Counted from the first letter of the stretch, positions 7,011 through 27,554 are shown. The stretch is DNA of 64,000 nucleotides from Bacteroidota bacterium (GCA_013359235.1 JABWCE010000003.1:80517-144516); one strand, 5' to 3'. The notes: generated by a model from the letters alone, not told the origin. Made by a program: numbers and translations.

Positions 7011-7583
7011 TTATTTTATATTTCGTCTTATTCTGCTAAGACTTTCGGGTGCTATTCCAAGATACGATGCAATAGTTTTCAAAGGTACACGATTGCTAAT
7101 TTCGGGATATTTATTTGTAAAAGTCAAATATCTTTCTTCTGCCGTTCCACCCAGCATACTGTTTAATCTGCGTTGGTTGGCAATGTAATTATTTTCGAGC
7201 ATTAGCCTCATATACCTTTCAAATTGTGGAACATTTTTAAAAATTTCTTCTCTATTTGCCAAATCCATAATCAGCATCTCGCAATTTTCTATTGCTTCAA
7301 TATTGTACATAGCTGGCAAACCTGTTAAAAAACTGAATAAATCTGTTACCCACCATCCTTCTATGGATATTTGATAGATAAGTTCATTCCCATTATTATC
7401 AATAGTATAGGTTTTCAAACAACCTTTGGTAACAAATCCTGTATGAAATGAAATATTGCCTTCTTGCAGGAAAAATTGCCTTTTTAAAAGTTTTTTTTGT
7501 TTAAAATTTTGAGAAATTATCTTCTTATCGCTTTCTGAAAGAAATATTGTTTTTGAAAGATTTTCAAATAGAAATTCAAACAT
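7011..7583 (-). CDS. Crp/Fnr family transcriptional regulator
   Basis: cNMP-binding-like N-terminal region (FVTKGCLKTY, IEAIE) and C-terminal HTH IASYLGIAPESLSRIR. Confidence 0.92.
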   Translation of the reverse strand: MFEFLFENLSKTIFLSESDKKIISQNFKQKKLLKRQFFLQEGNISFHTGFVTKGCLKTYTIDNNGNELIYQISIEGWWVTDLFSFLTGLPAMYNIEAIENCEMLIMDLANREEIFKNVPQFERYMRLMLENNYIANQRRLNSMLGGTAEERYLTFTNKYPEISNRVPLKTIASYLGIAPESLSRIRRNIK

Positions 7584-9218: not shown

Positions 9219-9270
9219 TTTGTTTTACTGTCGTCTGATTATTTTTTGCAGACTATCATAAACTTTTAAG

Positions 9271-9688: not shown

Positions 9689-9708
9689 AACATGATTTTT
9701 CTCATGTT
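9689..9708. promoter_or_regulatory. Crp/Fnr-type palindrome upstream of the cytochrome c-nar operon
   Basis: AACATGA-N6-TCATGTT, perfect 7-bp arms with a TGA-N6-TCA core. Confidence 0.7.
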
Positions 9709-9727
9709 GCAGTATTTAATGTAAATA

Positions 9728-9735
9728 TACTTTTG
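9728..9735 (+). promoter_or_regulatory. -7 promoter element of the nar operon
   Basis: TACTTTTG matches TAnnTTTG, 27 nt before ATG 9763. Confidence 0.7.
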
Positions 9736-9762
9736 CCTAAAATATTTTATAGAATTTAAACA

Positions 9763-10335
9763 ATGAAATCAAAAATCATTTCGTCATTATTAGCAGTTGT
9801 ACTGTTAATTTCATTTAGTTACAAAAGTGATGCACAAAACGCAGGAGAGGAATCATTCAAACAAATTTGTTCGGCTTGCCATACAGTAGGAGGCGGTAAA
9901 CTTGTAGGACCCGATTTGAAAAACACTACTCAAAGACATACCGAAGACTGGTTGATTAGCTTTATCAAATCATCACAATCATTAATAAAAAGCGGAGATA
10001 AATATGCCGACTCTATCTTTAATGCATATAATAAAGTTGTAATGCCCGACCAAACTACGCTTGACGATGCAAAGATTAAAGAAATTTTAACATACATTTC
10101 TGATAAAAGCGAAGGCAAATCAACTGCTTCGGCTGCTGCACCAACAGTAACCAATGCAGGCGATACATCTGCAGATGGAACAAAAAACAATGATTCTCTT
10201 TACACTACTACAAATATTATATTGTTCAGCATTATAATATTTTTAATGATAGTTATAGTTTTTTTATCAAGAGTTATCAAAAAACTATCAAACCAATTGA
10301 TGGATTTTTACAGCAGTGACAGATCGTTTTATTAA
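9763..10335 (+). CDS. Monoheme cytochrome c with C-terminal membrane anchor
   Basis: Signal peptide, CSACH, GPDL, distal Met in VMP, Ala/Thr linker, C-terminal TM helix. Confidence 0.9.
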   Translation: MKSKIISSLLAVVLLISFSYKSDAQNAGEESFKQICSACHTVGGGKLVGPDLKNTTQRHTEDWLISFIKSSQSLIKSGDKYADSIFNAYNKVVMPDQTTLDDAKIKEILTYISDKSEGKSTASAAAPTVTNAGDTSADGTKNNDSLYTTTNIILFSIIIFLMIVIVFLSRVIKKLSNQLMDFYSSDRSFY

Positions 10336-10353: not shown

Positions 10354-11217
10354 ATGAGAAAAAAATTCTTAAAACTAATTAAAGCAGGATTATCATTAGC
10401 AATGCTGGTAAATATTGCTTTTGCTCAAAGTGCAGGTGAAACAACATTTAAAAACACTTGTGCAGCATGTCATACAGTAGGCATGGGAAAACTTATTGGT
10501 CCTGATTTGGCAAATGTTGACAAAAGACAGTCGGAAGCATGGTTGATAAAATTTATTAAATCATCACAATCTGTAATTAAAAGTGGCGATAAATATGCTG
10601 ATTCTATTTTTAAAGCATTTAATCAGGTAACTATGCCTGACCAAGCATCACTAACTGATGCACAGATAAAAGAAGTTTTAGAATACATAAAATCAAAAAG
10701 TCCTGCTGTTACTGCAAGTTCAAGTACAAGCACTGAATCTACTTCTGAAACAACAAGTGCAACTACTTCAAATGGAGATGCATCACGCGGAAGAGATTTA
10801 TTTGTAGGTAAGTTGAGATTTTCAAATAATGGACCTACATGTAATTCATGCCATAATGTTGATATGGAGGGAGTAATAAGCGGAGGAGCATTGGCAAAAG
10901 ATTTAACACAGGCTTATTCACGTTTGGGAGAAGAAGGAGTAAAAGGAGTTATTTCAGGATTACCTTTTCCGCAAATGAAACAATCTTACGAAAAATCACC
11001 AATTATGGAGCAAGAAATTGCTGATATTGTGGCTTTTCTTAAAGAAACCGACAAACAAGCCTCAGCCAAAAGTACTGCAAGTGTTGGTAGTACAATGTTA
11101 ATTGGTGGAATAATTGGAGTAATAGTATTACTTGTATTATTTTCAATTTTCTGGATTAAAAGAAAAAGCCGTACAGTAAATTATTCAATATACGAAAGAC
11201 AAATAAAATCTACATAA
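10354..11217 (+). CDS. Diheme cytochrome c, NarC-like, C-terminal membrane anchor
   Basis: Signal peptide, CAACH and CNSCH, Ser/Thr linker, C-terminal TM helix; immediately upstream of narG. Confidence 0.9.
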   Translation: MRKKFLKLIKAGLSLAMLVNIAFAQSAGETTFKNTCAACHTVGMGKLIGPDLANVDKRQSEAWLIKFIKSSQSVIKSGDKYADSIFKAFNQVTMPDQASLTDAQIKEVLEYIKSKSPAVTASSSTSTESTSETTSATTSNGDASRGRDLFVGKLRFSNNGPTCNSCHNVDMEGVISGGALAKDLTQAYSRLGEEGVKGVISGLPFPQMKQSYEKSPIMEQEIADIVAFLKETDKQASAKSTASVGSTMLIGGIIGVIVLLVLFSIFWIKRKSRTVNYSIYERQIKST

Positions 11218-11241: not shown

Positions 11242-14200
11242 ATGAGTTGGATAGAAGACATCATATCACCCAAAACCCGTCAATGGGAAGAATTTTACCG
11301 CAATCGTTTTCAACACGATAGAATAGTAAGAAGTACTCATGGGGTAAACTGTACAGGAAGTTGCTCATGGCAAATCCATGTTAAGGAAGGAATAGTAGTG
11401 TGGGAAACACAACAACTCGATTACCCATTGCTTGAAAATTCTCTTCCACCCTACGAACCAAGAGGTTGCCAAAGAGGAATATCTTACTCATGGTATTTAT
11501 ACAGCCCATTGAGAATAAAATATCCTTTGATAAGAGGAACTTTAATTGATTTTTTCAGGGAAGAAAAAGAAAAAGCAGGAGGAAATCCAGTTTTAGCTTG
11601 GGAAAATCTTCAAAATAATAAAGAAAAACGTACAAGATATCAAAAATCAAGAGGTAAAGGTGGTTTTAGAAGAGTATCTTGGGATGAAGTTTTAGAACTA
11701 ATTGCTGCTGCAAATATTTACACAGCAAAAAAACATGGACCGGACCGTGTTGCCGGATTTTCGCCTATACCTGCAATGTCAATGATAAGTTATGCCGCAG
11801 GAGCTAGATTTTTGCAACTATTTGGTGGCTTCAATCTTAGTTTTTACGATTGGTATTGCGACCTTCCAACTCATTTCCCAGAAATGTGGGGCGAACAAAC
11901 TGATGTTTGCGAAAGTGCAGACTGGTATAATTCTAAATTTATTGCTGATATGGGAGCTTGTTTAAATATGACAAGAACACCAGATTGCCATTTCTTTGCA
12001 GAATCAAGACACAACGGAACAAAAGCTGTTGTTTTCTCACCTGACTTTAGCCAGGTTTGTAAATATGCTGACCAATGGGTTCCATTACATCCAGGTACTG
12101 ATAATGCATTTTGGATGGCAGTTACACACGTTATATTGAAAGAATTTCATTACGAAAAACAAACACCATATTTCATTGAGTACACAAAACAATATACTGA
12201 TAGTTCATTCCTAATTCATTTGAATAAAGAAGGGGATCATTATGTTCCCGGAAGACTTGTAAGAGCAAATGAAATTGCTAAATGGAAAGACATAGAAAAT
12301 GGCGATTGGAAATTTTTAAATATTGATGAAAAATCTGGCGATTTAGTTGTACCAAAAGGCACAATGGGTTACAGATGGGATAAAAATGGAGGAAAGTGGA
12401 ACATGAAATTTGAATGTGGAGAAACCGATAAAACATTTGATCCTGTATTAACCACAATCAATAAAAATGACGGAGTTCTTCAAACCGAGTTTGTTGAATT
12501 TGGTTTAGATAATAAATTTTTACGCGGCGTACCTGTTAAATACCTTGAAACTGTAAACGGCAAAGTACCTGTTGCTACCATATACGATGTAATAATGGGA
12601 CAATATGGAGTTGACAGAGGATTAGAAGGACAATATCCAAAAAATTACGAAGACAAAGATTCGTCATATACTCCAGCATGGCAAGAAATTTTTACAGGAA
12701 TTGATTCAAAAACTGTTTTACAATTTGCCAGAGAATGGGGAAATACAGCAGATGTTACTAAAGGAAAATGTATGGTAATTGTAGGAGCCGGTATAAATCA
12801 CTGGTATCATGCAAATTTAATTTACCGTTCAGCAGCTATGACTCTTGCATTAACTGGATGTGTAGGTAAAAATGGTGGAGGATTAAACCATTACGTAGGA
12901 CAGGAAAAACTTGCACCAGTTGATTCATGGGGTGGGGTAACATTTGCAAAAGACTGGGTTCCTACTGCACGATTACAACAAGCACCTTTGTGGCATTATA
13001 TTAATACATGTCAGTATCGTTATGATGGAAGACATTCACATTACAATGCAGTTCCTGATAACGAATTTACTAGAAAACACACAGCCGACAGCATTTTTAT
13101 GTCTGTTAGAAACGGATGGATGCCCTATTATCCTCAGTTCAACCAAAATCCATTAAATTTAGTAAAAGAAGCTGAAAACAGTGGTGCAAAGACAAATGAA
13201 GAAATTGTAAATTACACTGTAGATCAACTTAAAAACAAAAAGCTTCAATTTGCAATAAATGACCCTGATGCCGAAGAAAATTTCCCAAGACTTTGGTATA
13301 TATGGCGTGGAAATGCAATTACAGGTAGTATGAAAGGGCATGAATACGCATTTAAACATTACCTTGGTACACATCATAACTCAATTGGTAAGGATTCTGA
13401 CGAACATACAGAAGAAGTAGTATGGCATGATATTGCACCCGAAGGGAAAATGGATCTTGTAGTTGACCTAAACTTCAGAATGGATTCATCAGCATTATAT
13501 TCAGATATTGTTTTACCTGCTGCATCGTGGTACGAAAAAACAGATATGAACAGTACTGATATGCACTCGTTCATACATCCATTAGGACAAGCAATTGCAC
13601 CGGTTTGGGAATCAAAAACCGACTGGGATATTTTCAAAAACATTGCAAAAGTTACAAGCGACATTGCAAAACAATATTTTTCAGAACCAATGAAAGATAT
13701 TATAATGACGCCATTGTCACACGATTCTGTTGATGAAATTACACAACCTACAATTAAAGATTGGTACAAAGGCGAATGCGAACCAGTTCCCGGAAAAACT
13801 ATGCCAAAACTTACAGTTGTTACAAGAGATTATACCAAACTTTACGAGAAGTTTATAACTCTTGGCGAAGGAATCAGAGAAAAAGGACTTGGTGCACATG
13901 GCAATCATTATAACATACAAGAAGAGTATGATGAAATGTGCAATTCAAACCATTTTCCAAGAAGAAAATATGAAGACAAAACGCTACCTTCAATACAAGA
14001 AGACGAATGGGTATGTAATGCAATATTAAATCTTTCAACACTTACAAACGGTAAGCTCAATTACGATGCTTATAAAAATATGGAGAAAAAGACAGGTTTG
14101 CAATTAGCAGACTTAGGCGAAGGCACAAAAGATGTAAGATTCAGATATTCTGATTTAGCTGCACAACCCAGGAGATACAATACATCACCGGTTTGGTCAG

Positions 14201-14859
14201 GTTTAATGAACAATGGAAGAGCGTACTCGGCATATACATATAATGTTGATAAATTGATTCCTTGGAGAACCCTCACAGGAAGACAACATTTTTACTTAGA
14301 CCATGAGTTATACATTGCCCACGGCGAACATTTACCTACTTACAAACCCGCTCCAAGACCCGAAGTTTACGGCGATTTAAGAGAAACATGGAAAAACGGT
14401 AAAGCATTAGCATTAAACTATCTTACTCCTCACGGAAAGTGGCACATACACTCTACATATATGGAAAATATCAGAATGTTAACACTATCAAGAGGCTGCG
14501 AACCATGTTGGTTAAGTGAAAAAGATGCCGAAACATTAGGGATTAAAGATAATGACTGGGTAGAAGTACACAATGACCATGGAGTTTATGTTACAAGAGC
14601 ATGTGTAAGTTCAAGAATTGCTCCTGGCAGTTGTATAGTTTATCACGTACCCGAAAGAACAGTAGGTATTCCAAAATCACAATTGAGAGGCAATAAAAGA
14701 GGTGGCGGACACAATAGCGTTACACGTACACACTTAAAACCTAATTACCTTAGTGGTGGATATGGTCAGTTTTCATATCACTTCAATTATTGGGGACCTA
14801 TTGCTCCACAGCGTGATACACATGTTGTAGTTAAAAAAATGGAAAATTTAGTTTGGTAA
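11242..14859 (+). CDS. narG: Nitrate reductase / nitrite oxidoreductase alpha subunit (Mo-bisPGD, cytoplasm-facing)
   Basis: FS0 motif [11 protein letters not shown], Mo-ligand region [35 protein letters not shown]; no twin-Arg signal. Confidence 0.96.
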
Positions 14860-14895
14860 TAATTTAAAAATTAATAAAAGAAAAATAAAATAATT

Positions 14896-16446
14896 ATGGA
14901 CGTTCGTTCTCAAGTATCAATGGTTTTTCATCTCGATAAATGTATCGGATGCCACACATGTTCAATAGCATGTAAAAACATTTGGACCGACCGCAAAGGT
15001 GCAGAATATATGTGGTGGAATAATGTTGAAACAAAACCCGGAACCGGTTATCCAACAAAATGGGAAGACCAGTCAATTTACAGAGGTGGCTGGCAAAAAG
15101 AAAACGGTAAGGTAACACTTAAGGGAGCCGGTAAAAGGCGTGGTTTAACAAATATATTTTACAACCCTAACCTGCCAGTAATAGATGACTATTATGAGCC
15201 ATTTACCTACAAATATCTCGACTTGATAGAATCACCAGAAGGTGATGACCAACCAACCGCAAGACCAGTATCTTTAATTACAGGCGAACCCATTGATATA
15301 AAAATGGGACCTAACTGGGATGATGATTTAAGCGGAACCCCCGACTACGCAAGAAATGACCCTAATTTCAAAAATATGTCTGAAGCCGAGCAAGAAGTTA
15401 TGTTTCAGCTTGAAAAAATGGCATTTTTCTACTTGCCACGTATTTGCAACCATTGCTTAAACCCTGCTTGTGTAGCATCTTGCCCATCAGGAGCTATTTA
15501 CAAAAGAGGCGAAGATGGTGTGGTACTTATAAATCAGGAAGTATGCCGTGCATGGAGAATGTGTGTTACAGCTTGCCCTTATAAAAAATCATACTATAAT
15601 TGGCATACAGGAAAATCAGAAAAATGTATTCTTTGTTTTCCAAGAATAGAAGCAGGATTAGCTCCGGCATGTATGCACTCTTGCGTCGGAAGAATAAGAT
15701 ATTTAGGAGTTTTGTTATACGATGCTTCTAAAATAGAAGATGTAGTACACGACGATGAAAAAAACTTGATAAACAGACATCTTGATATAATATTAGACCC
15801 ATTTGATGAAAAAGTAATTAGAGCAGCAAAAATGAACGGAGTAGCTGATTCAACAATACATGCAGCACAAAATTCTCCAGTTTATAAATATGTAAAAGAA
15901 TGGAAACTTGCGCTTCCGCTTCATGCTGAATTTAGAACATTACCAATGTTATTTTACGTTCCACCATTATTACCAGTAATGGCTACTTTAAAACAAGTTG
16001 ATAATACTGAACAATCAGAAAAAATGAACCCAATTGCTAAATACTGGGACGACAACTGGTTGTACGATACAAGTACTGCCGAGCTTTGGGGCACTTTAGA
16101 TCAAGTGAGATTCCCATTGAAATATCTTGCAAGTATGCTCAGTGCAGGCAACGAAGATATGATTAAAGACAAGTGGAAAAAACTTATGGCTGTAAGAATT
16201 CACAGACGTAGAGTAACAGTAGGCGATATTAGCAATGAAAAAGCTGATGAAGTGTTGAAAGAAGCCGGTTTAACAGCCGAACAAGCAGAAGGAGTATTTT
16301 ACTTAACAGCACTTGCCAAATTTGAAGATCGTTTCGTAATTCCACCCGCACACCGCGAACAAGCTATAGAAATGATGGACTTTACAGGTGATGCAAAAGG
16401 AGAAATAGGTTTCGGTATAAAAAGCAAAGTAAGAAGAGGAATTTAA
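14896..16446 (+). CDS. narH: Nitrate reductase beta (Fe-S) subunit
   Basis: CIGCHTC..C, CNHCLNPAC..C, CRAWRMC..C (Trp replacing Cys at the 3Fe-4S site), CILC..C..C. Confidence 0.96.
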   Translation: MDVRSQVSMVFHLDKCIGCHTCSIACKNIWTDRKGAEYMWWNNVETKPGTGYPTKWEDQSIYRGGWQKENGKVTLKGAGKRRGLTNIFYNPNLPVIDDYYEPFTYKYLDLIESPEGDDQPTARPVSLITGEPIDIKMGPNWDDDLSGTPDYARNDPNFKNMSEAEQEVMFQLEKMAFFYLPRICNHCLNPACVASCPSGAIYKRGEDGVVLINQEVCRAWRMCVTACPYKKSYYNWHTGKSEKCILCFPRIEAGLAPACMHSCVGRIRYLGVLLYDASKIEDVVHDDEKNLINRHLDIILDPFDEKVIRAAKMNGVADSTIHAAQNSPVYKYVKEWKLALPLHAEFRTLPMLFYVPPLLPVMATLKQVDNTEQSEKMNPIAKYWDDNWLYDTSTAELWGTLDQVRFPLKYLASMLSAGNEDMIKDKWKKLMAVRIHRRRVTVGDISNEKADEVLKEAGLTAEQAEGVFYLTALAKFEDRFVIPPAHREQAIEMMDFTGDAKGEIGFGIKSKVRRGI

Positions 16447-16456
16447 TTTAAAAACA

Positions 16457-17245
16457 GTGAGTATCAACACAGCTATAAAACCAGCAAAAGAAAGTAAGTA
16501 CGAAATATATAAGTATTTGGCGAATATGTTTGATTACCCTCAAAATGATTCATACAAAAACTCAATAATTTCAGTTTATAATTTGCTGAAAACCGATATG
16601 CCTGAAGCAGCAGCATCTATGAATGTATTCATTGACTTTGTTAATGAAGCCTCATTAAGTGAAATGCAAGAATTGTATTTACGTTCATTTGATGTGCAGG
16701 CAATTACTACTCTCGATATAGGTTTTGTATTGTTTGGCGAAGATTACAAACGCGGACAACTGTTGGTAAACCTAAACCGCGAACACCGCGATGCCAACAA
16801 CACCTGTAATACAGAACTTGCAGATAGTTTGCCAAACGTACTCAATCTAATTTCACGAATGACAAATATTGAGATGCGTGATGAAATTGCTTCAAAACTT
16901 GTAATTCCGGCTGTTGTAAAAATGTCAAGCGAGTTTTCTTCTGATAAAATTGAGAAAAAAGATGAAATCTACAAAAAACACCTTAAAACCATTATTGATT
17001 TTTCTCAAAAATATCGCACTATTTACAAAACATTGCTCGACACTTTGCTTATTGTTTTAAAAAGAGATTTTAATTACGATATAAATATTCTTAACTATTT
17101 TAAAGAAGAAAAATGCCATGATGAATCAAAAGAGTCATGTTCATGCGATACAACGCCTAATACTGATGCTTTAGATGCTATCAACAACAACTACTTTAAA
17201 GACTTTAGTGAACAAATAGAAATTGAAATGATAATTGAAAAATAA
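16457..17245 (+). CDS. narJ: Nitrate reductase assembly chaperone (delta) with C-terminal extension
   Basis: QELYLRSFD, LFGEDYKRGQLL, TELADSLP; position between narH and narI; GTG start. Confidence 0.85.
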   Translation: MSINTAIKPAKESKYEIYKYLANMFDYPQNDSYKNSIISVYNLLKTDMPEAAASMNVFIDFVNEASLSEMQELYLRSFDVQAITTLDIGFVLFGEDYKRGQLLVNLNREHRDANNTCNTELADSLPNVLNLISRMTNIEMRDEIASKLVIPAVVKMSSEFSSDKIEKKDEIYKKHLKTIIDFSQKYRTIYKTLLDTLLIVLKRDFNYDINILNYFKEEKCHDESKESCSCDTTPNTDALDAINNNYFKDFSEQIEIEMIIEK

Positions 17246-17277
17246 AAATTTAACATTAAAATAAAAAATATAAAAAT

Positions 17278-18006
17278 ATGAATGTCCTTGATAATTTTTT
17301 CCTGATTGCACTGCCTTATATAGCACTTGCAGTATTTTTGGTAGGTTCTATTTACAGATACACCTATAAGGGATTTCAACTTTCATCGCTTTCTTCTCAA
17401 TTTCTTGAAGGAAGACGATTGTTTTATGGTTCAGTTCCTTTCCACTGGGGAGTTTTATTTTTGTTTACTGGGCACCTTATCGCTTTGCTATTTCCAAGAG
17501 GAGTTTTAGCTTGGAACAGCCAGCCTGTAAGACTAATGATATTGGAAATCACAGCTTTTATTTTTGGTATAAGTATGCTCATTGGTTTAGTGAATTTATT
17601 AATCAGACGATATACAACACCACGCTTGAAAACTGTTACAAACAGAATGGATTTGGTTATATATATACTATTGATTACTCAAACATTTGTAGGGCTTTGG
17701 ATAGCGTATAACTTCAGATGGGGTTCTTCATGGTTTTCATCATTACTTACACCATATCTTTATTCAATTTTTACTCTTCAACCAGATACTGCAGCCGTAG
17801 TTTTATTGCCTTGGACAGTAAAATTGCATATTATATTAGCATTTACTATTGTAGGATTAATACCTTTTTCAAGGTTAATTCACTTCTTGGTACCTCCTAT
17901 CAACTATATTTGGAGACCATACCAACAAGTAAAATGGTATTGGGACAGACGCAAAGTAAGAAGCCCAAGAACTCCTTGGACCCTTCAGCGTCCAAAAAAT
18001 AATTAA
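17278..18006 (+). CDS. narI: Nitrate reductase gamma subunit (di-heme b)
   Basis: SSLSSQFLE, PFHWG, TGHL, KLHI, PFSRLIH; five TM helices with four His. Confidence 0.95.
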   Translation: MNVLDNFFLIALPYIALAVFLVGSIYRYTYKGFQLSSLSSQFLEGRRLFYGSVPFHWGVLFLFTGHLIALLFPRGVLAWNSQPVRLMILEITAFIFGISMLIGLVNLLIRRYTTPRLKTVTNRMDLVIYILLITQTFVGLWIAYNFRWGSSWFSSLLTPYLYSIFTLQPDTAAVVLLPWTVKLHIILAFTIVGLIPFSRLIHFLVPPINYIWRPYQQVKWYWDRRKVRSPRTPWTLQRPKNN

Positions 18007-18008
18007 AA

Positions 18009-18467
18009 ATGTTGCTAAATATCGTTACTGATGAAGAATTACTAACAAGCCAAATTGTAAAAACAATTTTATTAGTTTTAGTTAGTTTAGGTATTGTTTA
18101 CAACATATTTAGAATTATCCGAAGCCAGACAAAAGTTAGAAAAATAATTAATTTTTCAATATTAGGGTTCCTTTTAATTACAATAGTTATAGTATTAAAA
18201 GAATACAAATATGAAACTACATTGCTTAAACACCCCTTGTATGTTGAAGGGACAACAATAGGTTATTGCAGTGTTTTCGGCAGAGGTGAAGGAATTGAAT
18301 TTGAATATGAAATTGATGGTATAAAATATAGATGTTGCAATACATATCATCCCGTTTCGAGAGATAGTATTGTAGTGCCTGGAGGAAAATATAAAGTAAG
18401 ATACACGAAAAAATATTTAAATAAAGGAAGGATGGTCTTTAAAAAGACTAATTTATTTCCACAATGA
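18009..18467 (+). CDS. Hypothetical membrane protein (2 TM plus small beta domain, DUF3592-like)
   Basis: Two hydrophobic helices then GTTIGYC..IEFEYEIDGIKYRCC..KYKVRY; starts 2 nt after narI. Confidence 0.7.
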   Translation: MLLNIVTDEELLTSQIVKTILLVLVSLGIVYNIFRIIRSQTKVRKIINFSILGFLLITIVIVLKEYKYETTLLKHPLYVEGTTIGYCSVFGRGEGIEFEYEIDGIKYRCCNTYHPVSRDSIVVPGGKYKVRYTKKYLNKGRMVFKKTNLFPQ

Positions 18468-18859
18468 AAAAAATAATAATAACAGCAATTATTCTATGTA
18501 GTTTTAACTTATCACAATCACAAAATCCAGAATCTAAAAACCAAAAGTCAAAGGTAACTTTTAAAACCGGAGGAACTTTAAATTTAAGTTTTCACCCCCA
18601 CAAAGGGACTAATTTAAATTCATTATTTCTTAATTTTGGTGGTCCAGGCATCAAGTTCGATTATGGGCAATACAGCATTGCCTACAACATGTTTCCTTCA
18701 ATCAGGTATTATGATGAAAATACATCACCAATACTTGGAACAGGGGTACAGTTAACTTACAAAAAATACTCATTTGTAGCCCCAATGTACTATGTAGTGA
18801 GCCCAAACAGTAAAAAAAATGTTTGGATTGTGAGTTTTGGATTCGGGTATAAATTATAA
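18464..18859 (+). CDS. Hypothetical exported protein, possible small outer-membrane beta-barrel
   Basis: Signal peptide, alternating amphipathic strands, C-terminus VWIVSFGFGYKL; start overlaps the upstream stop. Confidence 0.65.
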   Translation: MKKIIITAIILCSFNLSQSQNPESKNQKSKVTFKTGGTLNLSFHPHKGTNLNSLFLNFGGPGIKFDYGQYSIAYNMFPSIRYYDENTSPILGTGVQLTYKKYSFVAPMYYVVSPNSKKNVWIVSFGFGYKL

Positions 18860-18871
18860 AACCTTAAAATT

Positions 18872-20368
18872 ATGGAACAAAAAGTAACCGGATTGTCTTA
18901 CAGAATCCTGTTTTTAAATACACTTGCATTTACTGTATGCTTTGCCGTATGGATGTTTAATGGTGTTTTGGTAACATTTTTGGTTGATAATCAAATTTTC
19001 AAATGGAGTTCTGTTCAAGTAGGATGGCTATTAGCCATACCAGTTTTAAGTGGCTCTATTTTCAGATTGCACGGCGGAATATGGACTGATAAATATGGAG
19101 GAAAATGGATGCTGGGAGGTTTGTTGTTTTTATGTGCAATACCTATGTTTTTGGTAAGCCAGGCAAATAGTTTTGTATCATTTGCTTTGTGCAGCTTGGG
19201 TTTTGGGCTTGCAGGTGTAGGATTTTCTATTGGAATAGCATCAACATCAATGTGGTTTTCAAAAGAATGGCAGGGCAGGGCACTTGGTATTTTTGGAATG
19301 GGAAATTTTGGAGCAGGTATTACCACTCTATTAGCCCCGACAATTCTTAAAAAAATAACAAACAACGGTGCTAACCTCGATAATTGGAGACAATTACCAC
19401 AAATCTATGCTCTTGCTTTGGTAATTATGGGCGTAATTTTCATAATTTTTACCAAAAACAAAAAATCTGAATTTGCATTAAACAAAAAATTTACTGAAAT
19501 GCTAAAACCTTTAAAAGAAGTACGCGTTTGGAGGTTTGGTTTATATTATTATCTTGTTTTCGGCTGTTTTGTAGCTTTGGCTCAATGGCTTGTACCATAC
19601 TACATGAACGTTTACTCGGTTTCATTAGTAACTGCTGGGCTTTTAGCTACTATTTTCAGTATTCCATCGGGCTTAATAAGGGCTTTAGGAGGGTTTTTGT
19701 CAGACAAATTTGGAGCAAGAAGAGTAATGTATTGGATTTTTATAACATCAATATTTTTCTGCTTTTTATTAATAATACCTAAAATGACAATAAACTCACC
19801 GGGCATTGGCATACAATCAAAAAGAAACGGAACTATTTCGTTTGTATCTGATAGCCTTATAAAGGTTGATGATATTAGTTATACATTGATTAAAAAACCA
19901 TCAGAGAAACAAATTAACGGCAAAGAAAATTCAGCTCTGCCTCATAAAACCGAATGGCAGGAGTCTATAGTAAAAGTAGGCGATAAGGTAAAGAAAAAAC
20001 AAATAATTGCAAGGGGAACAACCAATATTGTATTTAAAGCAAATATATATGTTGCAACTTTGTTTATTTTTCTTGTTGGTATAATTTGGGGTATTGGCAA
20101 AGCTGCAGTTTACAAACACATTCCTAATTATTTTCCAAACGAAGTAGGTGCAGTTGGCGGTATGGTAGGTGTTTTGGGAGGCTTGGGAGGTTTCTTCTCT
20201 CCTATTATTTTCGGCTATTTATTAAAATGGACCGGGCTTTGGACAAGTATGTGGATTTTCTTATGGATAATTTCAGTGATTTGTTTATGGTGGATGCACA
20301 ATATTATTACTAAAATGCGTGATAAAGCTGCACCCGACACAAAAGGTAAATTTGAATCAATAAATTAA
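18872..20368 (+). CDS. narK: NarK family nitrate/nitrite MFS transporter (NarK1-like) with soluble insert
   Basis: GRALGIFGMGNFG nitrate signature, conserved Arg in GSIFRL and GLIRAL, GGMVGVLGGLGGF. Confidence 0.92.
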   Translation: MEQKVTGLSYRILFLNTLAFTVCFAVWMFNGVLVTFLVDNQIFKWSSVQVGWLLAIPVLSGSIFRLHGGIWTDKYGGKWMLGGLLFLCAIPMFLVSQANSFVSFALCSLGFGLAGVGFSIGIASTSMWFSKEWQGRALGIFGMGNFGAGITTLLAPTILKKITNNGANLDNWRQLPQIYALALVIMGVIFIIFTKNKKSEFALNKKFTEMLKPLKEVRVWRFGLYYYLVFGCFVALAQWLVPYYMNVYSVSLVTAGLLATIFSIPSGLIRALGGFLSDKFGARRVMYWIFITSIFFCFLLIIPKMTINSPGIGIQSKRNGTISFVSDSLIKVDDISYTLIKKPSEKQINGKENSALPHKTEWQESIVKVGDKVKKKQIIARGTTNIVFKANIYVATLFIFLVGIIWGIGKAAVYKHIPNYFPNEVGAVGGMVGVLGGLGGFFSPIIFGYLLKWTGLWTSMWIFLWIISVICLWWMHNIITKMRDKAAPDTKGKFESIN

Positions 20369-20380
20369 ATAAAAAAATAT

Positions 20381-21724
20381 ATGACAACATGGTTATCAAA
20401 ATGGGAACCCGAAAACAATGAGTTTTGGGAAACCGAAGGAAAAAAAATAGCGTGGAAAACCTTAATTTATACAACATTTTCACTAACACTTTCATTTGCC
20501 ACTTGGTTTATGATAAGTGCAATTGTAGTAAAACTGCCGGGAATAGGTTTTAAATTTTCAACCAATCAACTTTTTTGGCTTGCAGCTATGCCTGGTCTTG
20601 CAGGTGGTACTTTAAGAATTGTTCATACATTTCTATTGCCAATATTTGGAACAAGGCATGTAATCTCATACTCTACAATTATTAAACTTATACCTTGTAT
20701 AGGCTTAGGTTTTGCTGTAATGGATACTTCAACTCCATTTTGGATTTTTCTTGTACTGGCTTTTATGTGTGGTTTTGGCGGAGGTGATTTTTCGTCATTT
20801 ATGCCAAGTACCAATTTGTTTTTCCCGAAAAGATTAAAGGGAACAGCTTTAGGTATTCAGGCGGGGATTGGTAATTTTGGAGTAAGCCTTGCACAGTTTA
20901 TGACACCAGCTTTACTTGGTGTTAGTATCTTTGGAGCTTCGCAAACATTTACCAAAATTGATCCTAAAACAAAAGAAGTTTTAAGTACTTCTCAAATTTA
21001 CTTGCAAAATGCTGCTTTTTGGTATGTGCCATTAATAATCATTGTATCATTTGCTTGCTGGTATTATTTAAGAAGTATTCCAATGAAAGCCTCAATCAAA
21101 GAACAATTTGATATATTTAAAGAAAAACACACTTGGTACTGTACAATAATTTATTTTATGACTTTTGGTACTTTTGCAGGCTTGTCAGCAGCTTTTCCGT
21201 TAATGATGAAAACAATTTACGGAGGCTTTGAAGGAGCACCTGACCCATTGAAATACGCATTTTACGGTCCACTTATTGGCTCGGCTGCACGTGTATTTTT
21301 TGGTTTTATTTCAGATAGAACCGGAGGTGCTATTTTAACAACAATTACAGGAATTGGTATAATAGCAGGTTCAGTAATGCTTATTACAATGGGATTATTA
21401 ACCCCCGATAGTATGGAACAATTTCCAATGTTTGTAGCTGTAATGTTTGGATTGTTCTTTTTTACTGGTATTGGCAATGCTGCAACTTTCAGACAGTTTC
21501 CATTAATTTTCATTCATAACCAGCGCCAAGCTGCAGGTGTAATTGGATGGACAGCGGCTGTTGCTGCTTATGGACCATTTATTTTTTCGCTTTTAATTGG
21601 TATGATAATAAGTGCTACAGGCACACCAAAACCATTTTTTATAGGGTTAATTATTTTTACATTTATTGCAACTTTAATCAATTGGATATTTTATAATCGT
21701 AAGGGTTGCGAAAAGCCTTGTTAA
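20381..21724 (+). CDS. narK: NarK family nitrate/nitrite MFS transporter (NarK2-like)
   Basis: WEPENNEFW N-terminus, GFGGGDFSSFM, GIQAGIGNFGVS, FTGIGNAATF. Confidence 0.93.
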   Translation: MTTWLSKWEPENNEFWETEGKKIAWKTLIYTTFSLTLSFATWFMISAIVVKLPGIGFKFSTNQLFWLAAMPGLAGGTLRIVHTFLLPIFGTRHVISYSTIIKLIPCIGLGFAVMDTSTPFWIFLVLAFMCGFGGGDFSSFMPSTNLFFPKRLKGTALGIQAGIGNFGVSLAQFMTPALLGVSIFGASQTFTKIDPKTKEVLSTSQIYLQNAAFWYVPLIIIVSFACWYYLRSIPMKASIKEQFDIFKEKHTWYCTIIYFMTFGTFAGLSAAFPLMMKTIYGGFEGAPDPLKYAFYGPLIGSAARVFFGFISDRTGGAILTTITGIGIIAGSVMLITMGLLTPDSMEQFPMFVAVMFGLFFFTGIGNAATFRQFPLIFIHNQRQAAGVIGWTAAVAAYGPFIFSLLIGMIISATGTPKPFFIGLIIFTFIATLINWIFYNRKGCEKPC

Positions 21725-21790: not shown

Positions 21791-22465
21791 ATGGACAACA
21801 TATTTTCAAATACCGATTATTTAAAAAGAAATGTAGAAAAAGATTTGGGCGATGAGCCTCAATATTCACCAATGGATCCGCCTGATGCATACCGACCTCC
21901 CAATTTAGAAGTTGTACCCTACGAAGCGCTTCCAGCTTTTTTAAAACATCTAACTGACGAACACAAACTTATTTCGGCAGAATTAGAAAAATTTGAAGCA
22001 ACACTTTTAGAAATACGCAAAGAAGGGGTAAACAAAGAACGCAACAACCGACTTGGCGATTTTTTTAAGTTTCTTGACGAAACAATTGTACTTCATCATT
22101 TGAAGGAAGAAAGAATTTTATTTCCTGTTTTACATGATAAACTTATTGAAATAGGCGAAAAAAGTACTGGCGATATACCCGAAACTGCAGTAGATATGCT
22201 CGAAAACGACCATATTAAAACTATGCAGCTTACTACTCTTGCTTTTAGTCTGATGGGTATTTCTTCGAGATTGACAGATATTTCTTCAAGAGCTTTATTG
22301 ATTGATACTTCTATCGAACAATCAAATTTGCTTATAGAACTTCTTCGTCTTCATATTTTTAGAGAAGAAAATGTGGTTTTTCCATTAGCTGTAAAGCATT
22401 TGAACGAAAAAGATTTTAATTTGATGAATATAAAAATGTTTAAATATTTCTCAGAACAGATTTAA
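21791..22465 (+). CDS. Hemerythrin (HHE) domain protein
   Basis: Two H..HxxxE repeats: DEH..HHLKEERILFP and NDH..HIFREENVVFP. Confidence 0.88.
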   Translation: MDNIFSNTDYLKRNVEKDLGDEPQYSPMDPPDAYRPPNLEVVPYEALPAFLKHLTDEHKLISAELEKFEATLLEIRKEGVNKERNNRLGDFFKFLDETIVLHHLKEERILFPVLHDKLIEIGEKSTGDIPETAVDMLENDHIKTMQLTTLAFSLMGISSRLTDISSRALLIDTSIEQSNLLIELLRLHIFREENVVFPLAVKHLNEKDFNLMNIKMFKYFSEQI

Positions 22466-22468
22466 AAA

Positions 22469-23452
22469 ATGTTAATAGACAATTTTTCAAGAGTTCATAA
22501 TTATCTGCGAATATCTATAACTGATAAATGCAACTTGCGATGCTCGTATTGCATTTCTGAAGATTTACCACATGGGTATTATGCCAATCAGGTAAGGATG
22601 GAAGTTGATGAAATTGATAAAATTGCTTCGATATTTGTAAAACTTGGAATTACCAAAATCCGAATCACAGGAGGCGAACCACTTGTGAGAAAAGATGCAG
22701 AAAAAATTATACGAAGCCTTGCTAAATACCCGGTAGAGCTTGTAATTACAACTAATGGAGTATATGTTGACGAATTTATTTCTGTTTTTAAAGAATCAAA
22801 CATAAAATCGGTAAATGTGAGCCTTGACTCACTTAATACCGAAAGATTTTTACAAATTACAAGGCGAAATGAGTTTCAAAAAGTTAAAAAAAATATTGAT
22901 TTACTTCTTGAAAATGATTTTCATGTAAAAGTTAATACAGTTTTACAAAAAGGTATAAATGATGATGAAATTTTAGATTTTATTGACTGGACAAAAGACG
23001 TACCGGTTCATGTACGATTCATTGAATTTATGCCTTTTTCGGGAAATGACTGGGACAAAAACAAAGTAATTTCATTAAGCAAAGTTTTAGAAGAAATAAA
23101 CAAAAAATACCATTTTATTGAACTGATAAATGAAAAAAATGATACTGCCAAAAAATATTTTGTGCCTAATCATAAAGGAACTTTTGCCATAATAAGTACA
23201 ATGACACAACCATTTTGCAATACTTGCAATCGTCTTAGAATTACTTCTGACGGTAAAATGTACAATTGCCTGTTTGGAACACTTGAAACCGATTTGCTTA
23301 CAGCTTTAAGAAACAATCAGGATATTGAAAAGCTAATAATCGAAAATGTAAAAAGTAAACATTTTATGCTTGGCGGAAACAATGAAAACAGCAATTGGGG
23401 TATAAAAAATACCGATACCCGTAAGAAAAGCATGATAAATATTGGAGGATAA
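22469..23452 (+). CDS. moaA: GTP 3',8-cyclase (radical SAM)
   Basis: YLRISITDKCNLRCSYC, TGGEPL, FCNTCNRLR..C, C-terminal IGG. Confidence 0.96.
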   Translation: MLIDNFSRVHNYLRISITDKCNLRCSYCISEDLPHGYYANQVRMEVDEIDKIASIFVKLGITKIRITGGEPLVRKDAEKIIRSLAKYPVELVITTNGVYVDEFISVFKESNIKSVNVSLDSLNTERFLQITRRNEFQKVKKNIDLLLENDFHVKVNTVLQKGINDDEILDFIDWTKDVPVHVRFIEFMPFSGNDWDKNKVISLSKVLEEINKKYHFIELINEKNDTAKKYFVPNHKGTFAIISTMTQPFCNTCNRLRITSDGKMYNCLFGTLETDLLTALRNNQDIEKLIIENVKSKHFMLGGNNENSNWGIKNTDTRKKSMINIGG

Positions 23453-23466
23453 AATTTTTTTAAATC

Positions 23467-23484
23467 CGTTATGAAAATTATAAC
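23467..23484. promoter_or_regulatory. Candidate ModE-type operator between moaA and moeA
   Basis: cGTTAT-N7-ATAAC palindrome 9 nt before the moeA ATG. Confidence 0.45.
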
Positions 23485-23493
23485 ATATCGAAA

Positions 23494-24672
23494 ATGATTT
23501 CAACAGACGTAGCATTAAATTTAATATTAAAAAAATCAATTTTACTTAATAAAGCTGAACTGCCTATACTTGATGCATTTGGCTACATTATAGCAAAAAA
23601 AATTAAATCAAAAATAGATTATCCGCCATTTGACCAATCTGCAATGGATGGATATGGTATAAGATTTAGTGATTTTACCAAGCAAAGTCAGATAAATATT
23701 GTTCAAGAACTTCAAGCAGGTAGAAATTCAAACAAAACTATTTCAAAAAATCAGGCTGTAAGAATTTTTACAGGAGCTAAGGTTCCCGAAGGAGTTGATA
23801 CAGTAGTTATGCAAGAAAAAACATTTGTAAAAAACAAGCAATTAATAATTACAGATAATGAATTGAGCAAAGGAAACAACATAAGAAAGCAAGGTTCGCA
23901 AACTAAAAAAGGCGATTTAATAATAAATGAAGGGAAAAAAATTACAGCCGGAGTTACCGGATTTTTGGCAGGCTTAGGTTGTTACAAAGTAAATGTATAT
24001 AAAAAACCCAGAGTATGTATAATAACAACAGGCAAAGAACTTGTTGAAGAAGGGGGTCGAATTGGGGGAAGTAAGATATACGAAAGCAACTCGTTTAGCC
24101 TTAGATCTGCTCTAAAACAACAAAACATTGTTGATGTAAAAAATTTTACAGTAGATGATGATGAAACAGAAATTGAAACTTGTATAAATGAAAATATTGA
24201 CAATTGTGATATTTTGATTGTTACAGGAGGTGTATCGGTTGGCGATTACGATTTTGTAGTTAATTCTTTTAAAAATTGTGGAGTAAAAAAAATCTTTCAT
24301 AAAGTTAAACAAAAGCCAGGCAAACCAATGTATTTTGGAAAACACAAAAAAACTTTGGTTTTTGGGTTACCCGGCAATCCATCGGCAGTTTTAACATGCT
24401 TTTACATATATGTTTTACCTGCTATTTTAAAAATTACAGGTTCTAATGATTTAAACAAAAAAATTAAATTAACTCTTGCAAACGACTTTAAGAAAAAAAG
24501 TGACCTCACCTATTTTCTCAAAGGCAAAATATCAGAAAACAACGTAATAGCATTACATTCGCAGGAATCCTATCAAATGAATTCGTTTGCCGATGCAGAT
24601 TGTATTATTAAACTTGAAGAGAATAAAACTGAGTATAAAAAAGGCGAAATTGTTGATGTATTTATAATTTAA
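23494..24672 (+). CDS. moeA: Molybdopterin molybdotransferase
   Basis: PPFDQSAMDGY, RIFTGA, TGGVSVGDYD, QKPGKP, GLPGNP. Confidence 0.95.
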   Translation: MISTDVALNLILKKSILLNKAELPILDAFGYIIAKKIKSKIDYPPFDQSAMDGYGIRFSDFTKQSQINIVQELQAGRNSNKTISKNQAVRIFTGAKVPEGVDTVVMQEKTFVKNKQLIITDNELSKGNNIRKQGSQTKKGDLIINEGKKITAGVTGFLAGLGCYKVNVYKKPRVCIITTGKELVEEGGRIGGSKIYESNSFSLRSALKQQNIVDVKNFTVDDDETEIETCINENIDNCDILIVTGGVSVGDYDFVVNSFKNCGVKKIFHKVKQKPGKPMYFGKHKKTLVFGLPGNPSAVLTCFYIYVLPAILKITGSNDLNKKIKLTLANDFKKKSDLTYFLKGKISENNVIALHSQESYQMNSFADADCIIKLEENKTEYKKGEIVDVFII

Positions 24673-24675
24673 AAA

Positions 24676-25011
24676 ATGGATGAAACAAAAATAAACGGAA
24701 ATATTTGGATTGAAATTTCAAGATTAAAACTTGGTAGAGGCAGGGTAAATTTGCTCGAAAACATAAAAAAATTCGGTTCTATAACCGCTGCGGCAAAAAG
24801 CATTAAAATACCATATAGGCAGGCATGGGCAATGGTGAAAGAAATGAATAATAGTGCTAAAACAGAACTTGTTAAAATGAAAATAGGCGGAAAACATGGC
24901 GGAGGTGCAATTCTTACTGAGGAAGGTGAAAAAGTGCTTTTAACCTTTTATAAAACCCAAAAACAATTTGAAGATTTCAAAGAGAAAACAATAAACTCGT
25001 TAAACAAATAG
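24676..25011 (+). CDS. ModE-family winged-helix protein lacking molybdate-binding TOBE domains
   Basis: LGRGRVNLLENIKKFGSITAAAK..YRQAW, GGKHGGGAILT; only 111 aa. Confidence 0.85.
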   Translation: MDETKINGNIWIEISRLKLGRGRVNLLENIKKFGSITAAAKSIKIPYRQAWAMVKEMNNSAKTELVKMKIGGKHGGGAILTEEGEKVLLTFYKTQKQFEDFKEKTINSLNK

Positions 25012-25014
25012 GCA

Positions 25015-25749
25015 ATGGATATTTCAATCTATATTTTTTATACAATACTTTTCATAGTTGCATTTTTATATTCATCAGTTGGGCATGGCGGTGCCAGCGG
25101 ATATTTGGCATTAATGACCTTATTTTCATTTTCGCCAGCAGTATCAAGGCAAACAGCACTGATATTGAATATTTTTGTTTCGCTTGTTGCTTTTTACCAG
25201 TATTACAGAAGCAATAATTTCAACTTTAAACTATTTTATCCCTTTGCAATAACATCAATTCCCGCTGCATTTTTTGGTGGCATGATTACTCTAGATGCAG
25301 GTATTTACAAAAAAATTCTGGCTGTTTTAATTTTATTTCCTGTAATAAAACTTATGCAAAACCCAAGCAAAGAACAAAAAATTAAAAACACTCAAAATTT
25401 AGCATTTTCATTGATAATAGGCTTGCTAATAGGATTTTTATCAGGCATTATTGGAATTGGAGGTGGAATATTATTAAGCCCTATAATTTTATTGCTTGGC
25501 TGGGGAAATATGAAACAAACAGCAGCCACATCGGCTTTATTTATATTTGTAAATTCAATTGCCGGAATTTTGGGTGTAGTGTCAAAAGGTGTAAGTTTTA
25601 CTAATGAAATGTTTTTGATGATTTGTGTGGCATTTGTGGGAGGAGTAGCAGGTTCGTATTTCGGAGCTTTAAAATTTGACAATAAAATATTGAAAATTAT
25701 ACTTGCAATAGTTTTACTTATTGCATCTGTTAAGCTTTTAACAACATAA
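25015..25749 (+). CDS. TSUP (TauE/SafE) family permease
   Basis: SSVGHGGASGY and SGIIGIGGGILLSP repeats; about 8 TM helices. Confidence 0.9.
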   Translation: MDISIYIFYTILFIVAFLYSSVGHGGASGYLALMTLFSFSPAVSRQTALILNIFVSLVAFYQYYRSNNFNFKLFYPFAITSIPAAFFGGMITLDAGIYKKILAVLILFPVIKLMQNPSKEQKIKNTQNLAFSLIIGLLIGFLSGIIGIGGGILLSPIILLLGWGNMKQTAATSALFIFVNSIAGILGVVSKGVSFTNEMFLMICVAFVGGVAGSYFGALKFDNKILKIILAIVLLIASVKLLTT

Positions 25750-25753
25750 AAAA

Positions 25754-25987
25754 ATGAGTCTAAAAATATTGTTTTTCGGTCAGTTGACAGATATTACTAA
25801 GAAAAATGAAATAATTACTCCATTTTTTGAAGATACTAATACACTTATAAATTTTTTAGAAAAAGAATACAAAGGTTTGAAAAATGCCGAATATACGTTG
25901 GCGGTTAACAAAAACATAGTTAAAGAAAATAAGGTTTTGCATCAAAATGACGAAATAGCACTACTACCACCATTTTCGGGAGGTTAA
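25754..25987 (+). CDS. moaD: Molybdopterin synthase sulfur carrier
   Basis: 77 aa, ILFFG, AVN, C-terminal DEIALLPPFSGG. Confidence 0.93.
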   Translation: MSLKILFFGQLTDITKKNEIITPFFEDTNTLINFLEKEYKGLKNAEYTLAVNKNIVKENKVLHQNDEIALLPPFSGG

Positions 25988-26007
25988 AAGGTAAAAACAT
26001 TTAAAAA

Positions 26008-27111: not shown

Positions 27112-27551
27112 AAGAACACAAAATAAAAAATGTATTTGTTGAAGGAGCAATAAAAGCTGAGTTTGTAGCAGAATCAATTGCCAAACACAGCACAAAAAAA
27201 AACATAGGGGCACATAGTATTTTTTTAGGACAGGTGCGAAATGATATAATTGATGGTAACACTGTAAAAGCAATAGAATACACAAGCTACAATGAAATGG
27301 CTCTTGAAAAATTTCACGAAATAAGAAATGAAGTTTTTGAAAAATATGATATTGAGTGTATGCACATATATCATAGTTTAGGAAAAGTACAAGCAGGCGA
27401 AATTAGTCTTTTTGTTTTTACATCATCAACTCATAGAAAAGAAGCAATAAAAGCCTGCGAACACACAGTAGAGAGAATAAAAGCTGAAGTGCCTGTTTGG
27501 GGTAAAGAAATATTTGAAAATGAAAATTATATTTGGAAAAAAAACAATTAA
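27108..27551 (+). CDS. moaE: Molybdopterin synthase catalytic subunit
   Basis: FLGQVRND, IYHSLG, STHRKEA, IKAEVPVWGKE. Confidence 0.93.
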   Translation: MKEHKIKNVFVEGAIKAEFVAESIAKHSTKKNIGAHSIFLGQVRNDIIDGNTVKAIEYTSYNEMALEKFHEIRNEVFEKYDIECMHIYHSLGKVQAGEISLFVFTSSTHRKEAIKACEHTVERIKAEVPVWGKEIFENENYIWKKNN

Positions 27552-27554
27552 AAA

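Follow-up and report, generated by a model that had tools for sequence, protein, structure and literature searches.

The cluster of nar- and nxr-like genes at positions 11242..18006 of a 64,000-nt stretch of DNA from a Bacteroidota bacterium (GCA_013359235.1, JABWCE010000003.1:80517-144516; this whole stretch is referred to as the window) raises the question of whether the enzyme it encodes reduces nitrate or oxidizes nitrite. An earlier reading made from the DNA alone (the sequence-only reading) had noticed that the alpha and beta subunits, NarG and NarH, resemble the cytoplasmic nitrite oxidoreductase (NXR) of Nitrobacter more than the respiratory nitrate reductase (Nar) of enteric bacteria, and had held nitrate reduction to be the likelier role while leaving room for nitrite oxidation. 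We consider it very probable that the locus encodes a membrane-bound, cytoplasm-facing, NarC-containing respiratory nitrate reductase (NarCGHJI-NarK), of the type first described in Thermus thermophilus (narCGHJIKT). This view draws on subunit assignments, NarC homology, clade membership and genome gene content, all of them observed, and nothing found in the genome points to nitrite oxidation. The genes at the core of the system are the following.

9763..10335, + strand: monohaem cytochrome c gene; product with signal peptide, C-terminal hydrophobic anchor and one CxxCH motif (Pfam Cytochrom_C, 38.5 bits).
10354..11217, + strand: NarC-like dihaem cytochrome c, membrane-anchored, 287 aa, with two CxxCH motifs (CAACH, CNSCH), a signal-peptide-like start and a C-terminal hydrophobic stretch.
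11242..14859, + strand: NarG, catalytic molybdopterin subunit, 1205 aa (TIGR01580, 1450.5 bits versus a cut-off of 1084.15, residues 11-1205).
14896..16446, + strand: NarH, iron-sulfur subunit, 516 aa (TIGR01660, 651.1 bits versus a cut-off of 524.05; matches to Pfam Fer4_11 and Nitr_red_bet_C).
16457..17245, + strand: NarJ-like assembly chaperone, 262 aa (TIGR00684, E 1.7e-11, 44.4 bits, residues 24-173; no Pfam match).
17278..18006, + strand: NarI, dihaem b membrane subunit with the quinol oxidation site, 242 aa (TIGR00351, 128.7 bits versus a cut-off of 105.55; Pfam Nitrate_red_gam, 204 bits).

They are part of a run on the + strand that comprises the two cytochrome c genes, narG, narH, the narJ-like gene, narI, two small open reading frames (ORFs), two NarK-type genes of the major facilitator superfamily (MFS), a hemerythrin gene, and a molybdenum cofactor block that extends to position 28466. 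The gap between narG and narH is 36 nt, the narJ-like gene lies between narH and narI, the same position as in all reference loci, and narG of this kind is present in a single copy in the genome. NarG, NarH and NarI all exceed the cut-offs of the curated NCBI equivalog models. The FS0 His/Cys motif is present in NarG, and its Asp207 aligns with residue 222 of the E. coli NarG chain (3egw_A), where the aspartate is conserved; we take the E. coli residue to be the aspartate that ligates molybdenum. By inspection, the N-terminus of NarG contains neither a twin-arginine RR-x-F-L-K-like motif nor a hydrophobic stretch, and because the twin-arginine signal is lacking the subunit is placed on the cytoplasmic side of the membrane. 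In the NarJ-like protein, residues 24-173 match the 152-position NarJ model, and about 90 residues at the C-terminus form an extension with a cysteine-rich C-x8-C-x-C element.

Since NarG, NarH and NarI exceed the cut-offs of the NCBIfam equivalog models that also apply to E. coli NarGHI, and since the best solved-structure match of NarG is E. coli NarG (1174 bits), one could argue that the locus is a canonical narGHJI of the enteric/Bacillus type, whose motif differences amount to ordinary divergence. We give this idea practically no credence: it is refuted by the trees and topology tests reported below, canonical NarGs are just 43-47% identical to that of the window, and eight canonical loci have no NarC homologue. 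The references for these comparisons were obtained by an exact scan of one genome per GTDB species with F1norA, the forward primer for Nitrobacter nxrA, which encodes QTDVCE according to the part of a published report consulted here (PMC12542776). The scan returned 38 loci (L003-L040), 12 of them titled Nitrobacter and 26 otherwise: Chloroflexi/Anaerolineae (6), Flavobacteriales (4), uncultured Alphaproteobacteria (4), Xanthobacteraceae (3), Saprospiraceae (2), Burkholderiales (2), and one each of Eremiobacterota, Rhodospirillales, Planctomycetaceae, Calditrichaceae and Wenzhouxiangellaceae. Other references were taken from annotated records: E. coli K-12 narGHJI, and the plasmid-borne nar of Thermus thermophilus, Niallia taxi, Marinovum, E. 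coli narZ, Ralstonia, Paracoccus, Streptomyces and Rhodococcus, with Haloferax as the outgroup. Identities to the proteins of the window are distributed as follows (MAG, metagenome-assembled genome).

Closest public NarGs (Niastella, Ferruginibacter, Cytophagales, Saprospiraceae; Gamma-/Deltaproteobacteria, Gemmatimonadales and Turneriella MAGs): NarG 75-87%.
Flavobacteriales MAGs: NarG 66-67%, NarH 66.5%.
Thermus thermophilus: NarG 58.7%, NarH 56.7%.
NxrA/NxrB of Nitrobacter and near relatives (14 full-length): NarG 55.3-56.9%, NarH about 55% (Nitrobacter).
E. coli NarG and NarZ: NarG 45.0% and 45.8%; NarH 52.0%, beta subunit of the narZ operon 49.7%.
Ralstonia, Paracoccus, Marinovum, Niallia: NarG 45-47%, NarH 47-48%.
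Streptomyces, Rhodococcus: NarG 43-44%, NarH 46-47%.

Nitrobacter NxrA has its own close relatives, at 69-83% identity, in Burkholderiales, Chloroflexota and other phyla. The peptide strings that the sequence-only reading had quoted for the alpha and beta subunits are present exactly in NarG and NarH; the latter begins MDVRSQVSMVFHLDKC..KNIWTDRKG and contains CRAWRMC. The contrast of motifs that it had drawn is also correct, as E. coli K-12 NarG reads DLPPASPQTWGEQTDVPESA at the compared motif and differs in the stated way from the NxrA of Nitrobacter (four named loci). QTDV-P-ES is found in all nine canonical-type sequences matched by pattern (eight named references and one unnamed representative), whereas C takes the place of the canonical P in the window and throughout the Nitrobacter-containing group; in L003-L040 this C is there by construction, as F1norA selects for it. 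Of 20 Bacteroidota NarGs fetched independently of the motif, 10 have C at this site, 5 have A, 3 have Q, and one each has N and H; Thermus NarG has H. In NarH, FHLDKC occurs across the NarC-type set (19 loci and the window), and so does CRAWRMC, except for the CKAWRMC of Thermus; canonical NarH has LNLDKC (8/8) and CRGWRMC (6/8), with CRGWRLC in the E. coli NarZ operon and CRSWRFC in Niallia. Motifs of the QTDVCES/CRAWRMC type mark the clade, not the direction of catalysis.

A search at the level of 50%-identity representatives gave mostly fragments; five full-length rows from it entered the first tree, and the four with long branches were dropped from later ones. In a quick 57-row NarG tree (LG+G4), the canonical clade and a clade that we call NarC-type, because its operons begin with the dihaem cytochrome c gene narC, are each recovered with 99% support in the SH-like approximate likelihood ratio test (SH-aLRT). 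The NarC-type clade contains two unnamed long-branched rows (P0127 and P0138), Thermus, a group with the window (100) and a Nitrobacter-containing group (100), the last two being sisters at 96. A quick mixture-model tree of 38 rows has the same topology (99 for the canonical clade, 91 for the NarC-type clade, 100 and 100 for the two groups, 94 for the sister node). With the 20 Bacteroidota NarGs added (58 rows), canonical and NarC-type clades stand at 99 and 98, all 20 join the window in a Bacteroidota-rich group (90), and the order of the Thermus, Nitrobacter-containing and Bacteroidota-rich groups has support below 80. A careful mixture-model tree of 23 rows, with ultrafast bootstrap (UFBoot) and SH-aLRT values, gives 100/98 for the canonical clade and 97/95 for the NarC-type clade, within which there is a polytomy. 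Overall, the canonical clade is set apart at 98-100% support in all five NarG trees. The careful NarH tree (29 rows) agrees: support is 95/93 for the canonical clade, 100/100 for the grouping of the window with Saprospiraceae and Calditrichaceae, and 87/82 for that of Thermus with the Nitrobacter-containing group. Its deep nodes lack resolution because the branch of the Haloferax outgroup is very long.

Approximately unbiased (AU) tests were carried out on 19 rows with LG+G4, with groups that were named after a tree had been seen. Placement of the Bacteroidota group with canonical NarG is rejected (p-AU 1.1e-4); branching with enteric or Bacillus NarG is the result that the sequence-only reading had named beforehand as one that would overturn it. 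A position with the Nitrobacter/Burkholderiales tip lineage alone is also rejected (p-AU 2.5e-48). The test does not reject a sister relation to the Nitrobacter-containing group taken as a whole (p-AU 0.495), and it weakly disfavors one to Thermus (p-AU 0.038). The branching order of the three NarC-type subgroups is left unresolved by these analyses. The sequences compared indicate that the operon belongs to a NarC-type Nar/NXR clade, distinct from the enteric/Bacillus-type Nar. The proposal that NarG and NarH are nearer to the Nitrobacter NxrAB lineage than to enteric Nar is therefore borne out by identities, trees and AU test, in a wider form; the notion of a Bacteroidota member of the NXR/Nar lineage stands as far as the NarC-type clade is concerned, but not as a place inside the Nitrobacter group.

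The same trees bear on whether we are dealing with a physiological nitrite oxidoreductase as in Nitrobacter, which would oxidize nitrite in the cytoplasm and send the electrons out through NarI and NarC-like cytochromes to an aa3-type oxidase, so that the Bacteroidia host would be a hetero- or mixotrophic nitrite oxidizer. We find this very improbable. It shares a clade with Nitrobacter NxrA to recommend it, and the sister relation recovered at 96 and 94 in two trees, but that relation is gone in the 58-row and the careful 23-row trees, and nesting with the tip lineage of Nitrobacter is among the rejected topologies. Moreover, the NarG of Thermus, a nitrate reductase, is as close to that of the window as Nitrobacter NxrA is (58.7% versus about 56%). 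Because the Thermus nitrate reductase, which has the same narC-G-H-J-I-K order, is in this lineage, resemblance marks the NarC-type Nar/NXR clade and not NXR function.

A further element of our argument is the product encoded directly 5' of narG. It aligns over both haem domains with the product encoded directly 5' of Thermus narG (locus L042; 28% identity, E 1e-23), and over both haem domains and the anchor with the cytochrome c encoded 5' of Nitrobacter nxrA (34% identity, E 2e-42). Of the 38 loci fetched with the primer, 29 have a NarC homologue encoded upstream, as does Thermus, against 0/8 of the canonical reference loci; the other nine are either additional copies of Nitrobacter nxrA or truncated contigs. 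Such extra copies are seen in several Nitrobacter genomes (L006, L009, L013, L018, L022, L040), beside complete clusters, and no NarC-like cytochrome, nxrB, narJ or narI homologue occurs within their fetched flanks. In the part consulted here of a review (PMC7694296), the NarC of Thermus narCGHJIKT is described as a periplasmic dihaem cytochrome that is bound to the membrane and makes up the enzyme's fourth subunit; it interacts with NarI, is required for maturation and attachment to the membrane, and can hand electrons on to periplasmic acceptors. A connection of the Thermus type with the NXR of Nitrobacter is already in the literature. By analogy, the product of 10354..11217 is probably a fourth subunit of the reductase. 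Over 113 residues, the product of 9763..10335 shares 60% identity with the first haem domain of the NarC-like protein, a similarity that identifies it as a copy of this domain with its own anchor. No separate copy of this extra monohaem gene was seen in a Saprospiraceae locus (L003) with 8 kb of upstream sequence.

The cytochromes can be interpreted in more than one way. The homology to the cytochrome of Nitrobacter speaks for a nitrite oxidizer, and electrons are said in the same part of the review (PMC7694296) to flow in Nitrobacter from the NarI homologue to the NarC homologue. A related possibility, which we rate as having only a slight chance of being correct, is that the NarC-type enzyme of this Bacteroidia lineage is reversed under oxic conditions, with the electrons of nitrite reaching the aa3 oxidase by way of NarI and both NarC-like cytochromes; if true, Bacteroidota heterotrophs would be an unrecognized sink for nitrite and source of nitrate. 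It can also be argued that the main gain of this nitrate reductase is an electron branch from quinol to the periplasm through NarC, which would feed a clade II N2O reductase, and perhaps a NorB-like oxidase, when nitrate is scarce, partly replacing complex III. Thermus no longer grows on nitrite or NO once NarC is lost, and the protein has been proposed as an electron bridge to the nitrite and NO reductases (PMC7694296, in the part consulted); the second, monohaem copy of the first NarC domain, and a nosZ gene about 17 kb past the end of the window on the same contig, would fit this arrangement. On the other hand, the Thermus NarC is just 28% identical to that of the window and the literature consulted gives no data that link NarC to NosZ in any organism, and we regard the branch as an unlikely main function.

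How common operons of this type are in the phylum was determined in an evenly drawn sample of 400 other Bacteroidota genomes, with a NarG match at E <= 1e-100. NarG is present in 24 of them, with 55-80% identity to the window in all cases and none near 45%; a canonical NarG would have passed this threshold, because canonical NarGs score E = 0 against the NarG of the window. A narC homologue lies directly 5' of narG, and narH 3', in 20/20 genomes examined of the 24 (G010, G015, G201 and G293 were left out). No kind of NarG other than the NarC-type turned up in the Bacteroidota sampled. This type is not rare there, which overturns the remark that no Bacteroidota example was known and, given this frequency, also speaks against nitrite oxidation. 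To our knowledge, there is no known nitrite oxidizer in the Bacteroidota. A literature search for narC in Bacteroidota gave no paper that, judged by its title, deals with this subject. The statement, in the part of the review consulted, that NarC is absent from the nar operons of mesophiles (PMC7694296) fails for the sampled Bacteroidota.

The gene content of the genome provides independent information on the direction of the reaction. The assembly (2.65 Mb, 44 contigs) is rated 100% complete, and the GC content of the window is 28-37%. The best named relatives of the RecG encoded in the window come from 'Bacteroidia bacterium' MAGs (79% and 69%), followed by Flavobacteriales (64%), and because of these relatives the host is confirmed as a member of the Bacteroidota, as had been supposed. 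Control genomes responded in the searches for RuBisCO, nirK, nirS, nrfA, nirB, the sirohaem domain, nosZ and haem-copper oxidases; a search for ATP-citrate lyase, in which no control genome responded, is uninformative. In the genome of the window there is no match to the RuBisCO large subunit (PF00016), nirK (TIGR02376), nrfA or the sirohaem nitrite/sulfite reductase domain, and nothing above cut-off for nirS and nirB. A weak Cytochrom_D1 match was rejected as nirS: it is a beta-propeller protein encoded beside an enoyl-CoA hydratase gene. The search for carbon fixation and nitrite reductase genes that the sequence-only reading had proposed thus comes out against nitrite oxidation, RuBisCO and nirK being expected in Nitrobacter-type nitrite oxidizers; one aa3-type haem-copper oxidase, which such an organism could use, is present. 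The preference of the sequence-only reading for nitrate reduction over nitrite oxidation is in line with our own result, a NarCGHI nitrate reductase being the best supported reading.

A clade II (Sec-type) nosZ was found at G000:C28:161644-163455 (locus L052; 940 bits, above cut-off). Because nosZ is present and no nitrite reductase gene was found, nitrate is probably respired only as far as nitrite, with N2O reduced separately; the gene content suggests an ordinary nitrate respirer that stops at nitrite and can also reduce N2O. Besides the aa3-type oxidase, the only other haem-copper oxidase found is a divergent stand-alone protein of 457 aa (G000:C29, L054:1396-2769, - strand). Its match to ccoN is weak (78.7 bits versus a cut-off of 583), its best solved relative is the NorB of a cytochrome c-dependent NO reductase (cNOR; 4xyd, 67.5 bits), and none of its neighbors was recognized as norC-like, the fetched locus having three ORFs of 150 aa or more.

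From family membership, quinol would be oxidized at NarI, with its two b haems, and the electrons would travel by way of the NarH iron-sulfur clusters to the NarG molybdenum cofactor, where nitrate would be reduced to nitrite in the cytoplasm. NarJ would aid the insertion of the cofactor, for which the neighboring moa and moe genes would make provision, and the two NarK-type carriers would bring nitrate in and take nitrite out. By homology with Thermus, the membrane-anchored periplasmic dihaem NarC would bind to NarI as the fourth subunit. The remaining genes of the run are listed below, together with a candidate regulator.

18009..18467, + strand: small predicted membrane protein; no Pfam/NCBIfam family above threshold; 45% identity to an ORF between narI and narK in the Saprospiraceae locus L003.
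18464..18859, + strand: small ORF with signal-peptide-like start; no family match and no homologue in any fetched locus.
18872..20368, + strand: NarK-family MFS transporter 1 (TIGR00886, 182.8 bits, under the cut-off of 311.7).
20381..21724, + strand: NarK/NarU-family MFS transporter 2 (NF011608, 289.7 bits; TIGR00886, 277.7 bits; both under cut-offs); 36% identity to E. coli NarK.
21791..22465, + strand: hemerythrin-domain protein (Pfam Hemerythrin, 39.3 bits; weak RIC/YtfE match).
22469..28466, + strand: molybdenum cofactor block, from profile matches: moaA, moeA, ModE-like gene, unassigned ORF, moeB, moaE, moaC/moaB.
7011..7583, - strand: Crp/Fnr-family regulator candidate, 190 aa (Pfam cNMP_binding, 31.0 bits versus a cut-off of 27.5).

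The ORF at 18464..18859 may be outside the nar system. Transporter 1 is 56-59% identical to ORFs in nar loci of Saprospiraceae, Calditrichaceae and Flavobacteriales (following narI in L003 and L024), and 29-30% identical to the MFS protein encoded after Nitrobacter narI. The hemerythrin-domain protein, which shares 40-41% identity with ORFs that follow narI in three nar loci of Flavobacteriales, possibly has a role in iron-sulfur repair or protection from NO. In the cofactor block, moaA (TIGR02666, 339.8 bits) and MoaC/MoaB (NF002947, 387 bits) are over their cut-offs, MoeA matches NF007960, and there are matches for a ModE domain, MoeB and MoaE. The regulator candidate has no NCBIfam match and no N-terminal cysteine cluster visible in its translation; we only infer its tie to the nar operon. 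A tRNA-Gln gene (anticodon TTG; 9270-9343, - strand) is located in the long AT-rich spacer between a ribose-phosphate pyrophosphokinase gene and the nar operon. Elsewhere, the window codes for aconitase, enolase and fructose-1,6-bisphosphatase, and at 47881-51057 for a 1059-aa protein with weak DNA methyltransferase matches (MADS MAD2, BREX PglX), all far under cut-offs.

Several observations weigh against the assignment as a NarC-containing nitrate reductase. Sequence does not reveal in which direction the enzyme works, and its clade includes the closely related NXRs of Nitrobacter; the named NxrA sequences in the comparisons are those of Nitrobacter, and the true NXR group is mapped only to that extent. 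The role of NarC is extrapolated from a Thermus protein of just 28% identity. The score of the NarJ-like protein falls below the TIGR00684 cut-off (59.35), both NarK-type proteins are under subfamily cut-offs, and no nitrite reductase gene that would account for the fate of nitrite was recognized in the genome. The Crp/Fnr box that had been invoked in favor of nitrate reduction could not be confirmed: there is no TTGAT-N4-ATCAA site with up to one mismatch in the 544 nt upstream of the first cytochrome gene (9219-9762), and the seven such sites of the whole window compare with 9.2 expected by chance.

Our assignment has practical consequences for annotation. If nxrA were annotated by similarity to Nitrobacter or by the QTDVCES region, nitrate reductases of Bacteroidota, Chloroflexota and other groups would be mislabeled. 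The concern extends to the common assay for Nitrobacter nxrA, as F1norA matches exactly the 26 of 38 loci that are not titled Nitrobacter, although the scan with the forward primer alone says nothing on amplification by the primer pair.

These results can be viewed against the known systems. E. coli NarGHJI and NarZYWV have the same four core subunits, cofactor motifs and curated family models as the window; they differ in having no cytochrome c gene, in the position of narK (upstream in E. coli, downstream in the window), in the longer N-terminus of NarG, and in the motifs QTDVPES, LNLDKC and CRGWRMC. The Nitrobacter locus has the order cytochrome c, nxrA, FKBP-type isomerase gene, nxrB, narJ-like gene, narI, MFS transporter. 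It has in common with the window the alpha motif, CRAWRMC, the homologous upstream cytochrome c and the MFS gene after narI. The Nitrobacter-like gene order seen in the sequence-only reading therefore holds for cytochrome c, alpha, beta, chaperone, gamma and MFS genes, but not for the isomerase gene, a 235-aa FKBP_C protein gene in locus L012 (presumably nxrX), in place of which the window has only the short gap between narG and narH; this difference counts against an NXR. Nitrobacter NxrA forms a separate group with full support (100) in the 57-, 38-, 58- and 23-row trees, and extra nxrA copies are a further feature of Nitrobacter. In the part of PMC6050957 consulted, a close relationship is stated between cytoplasm-facing Nars and the cytoplasmic NXRs that occur in Nitrobacter, Nitrococcus and Nitrolancea; CO2 fixation by the Calvin cycle and nirK are attributed to these nitrite oxidizers in the corresponding part of PMC11327836, unlike the genome of the window, in which neither RuBisCO nor nirK was found.

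The comparison with Thermus thermophilus also shows differences. Thermus is a thermophile, whereas the host of the window has a mesophile-like, low-GC Bacteroidia genome; the window has in addition the gene for the monohaem cytochrome, the pair of small ORFs that separate narI from narK, and the molybdenum cofactor block, and no nrc or dnr/drp gene was recognized among its ORFs. Locus L042 has one transporter gene and the window two, while in strain NAR1 there are also two, narK and narT (PMC7694296, in the part consulted). According to the same source, Thermus NarG is an experimentally studied nitrate reductase (PMC7694296). The narCGHJIKT operon has the same order of cytochrome c, alpha, beta, chaperone, gamma and transporters as the window, its NarC is a homologous dihaem cytochrome, and the NarGs of Thermus and of the window are in the same NarC-type clade.

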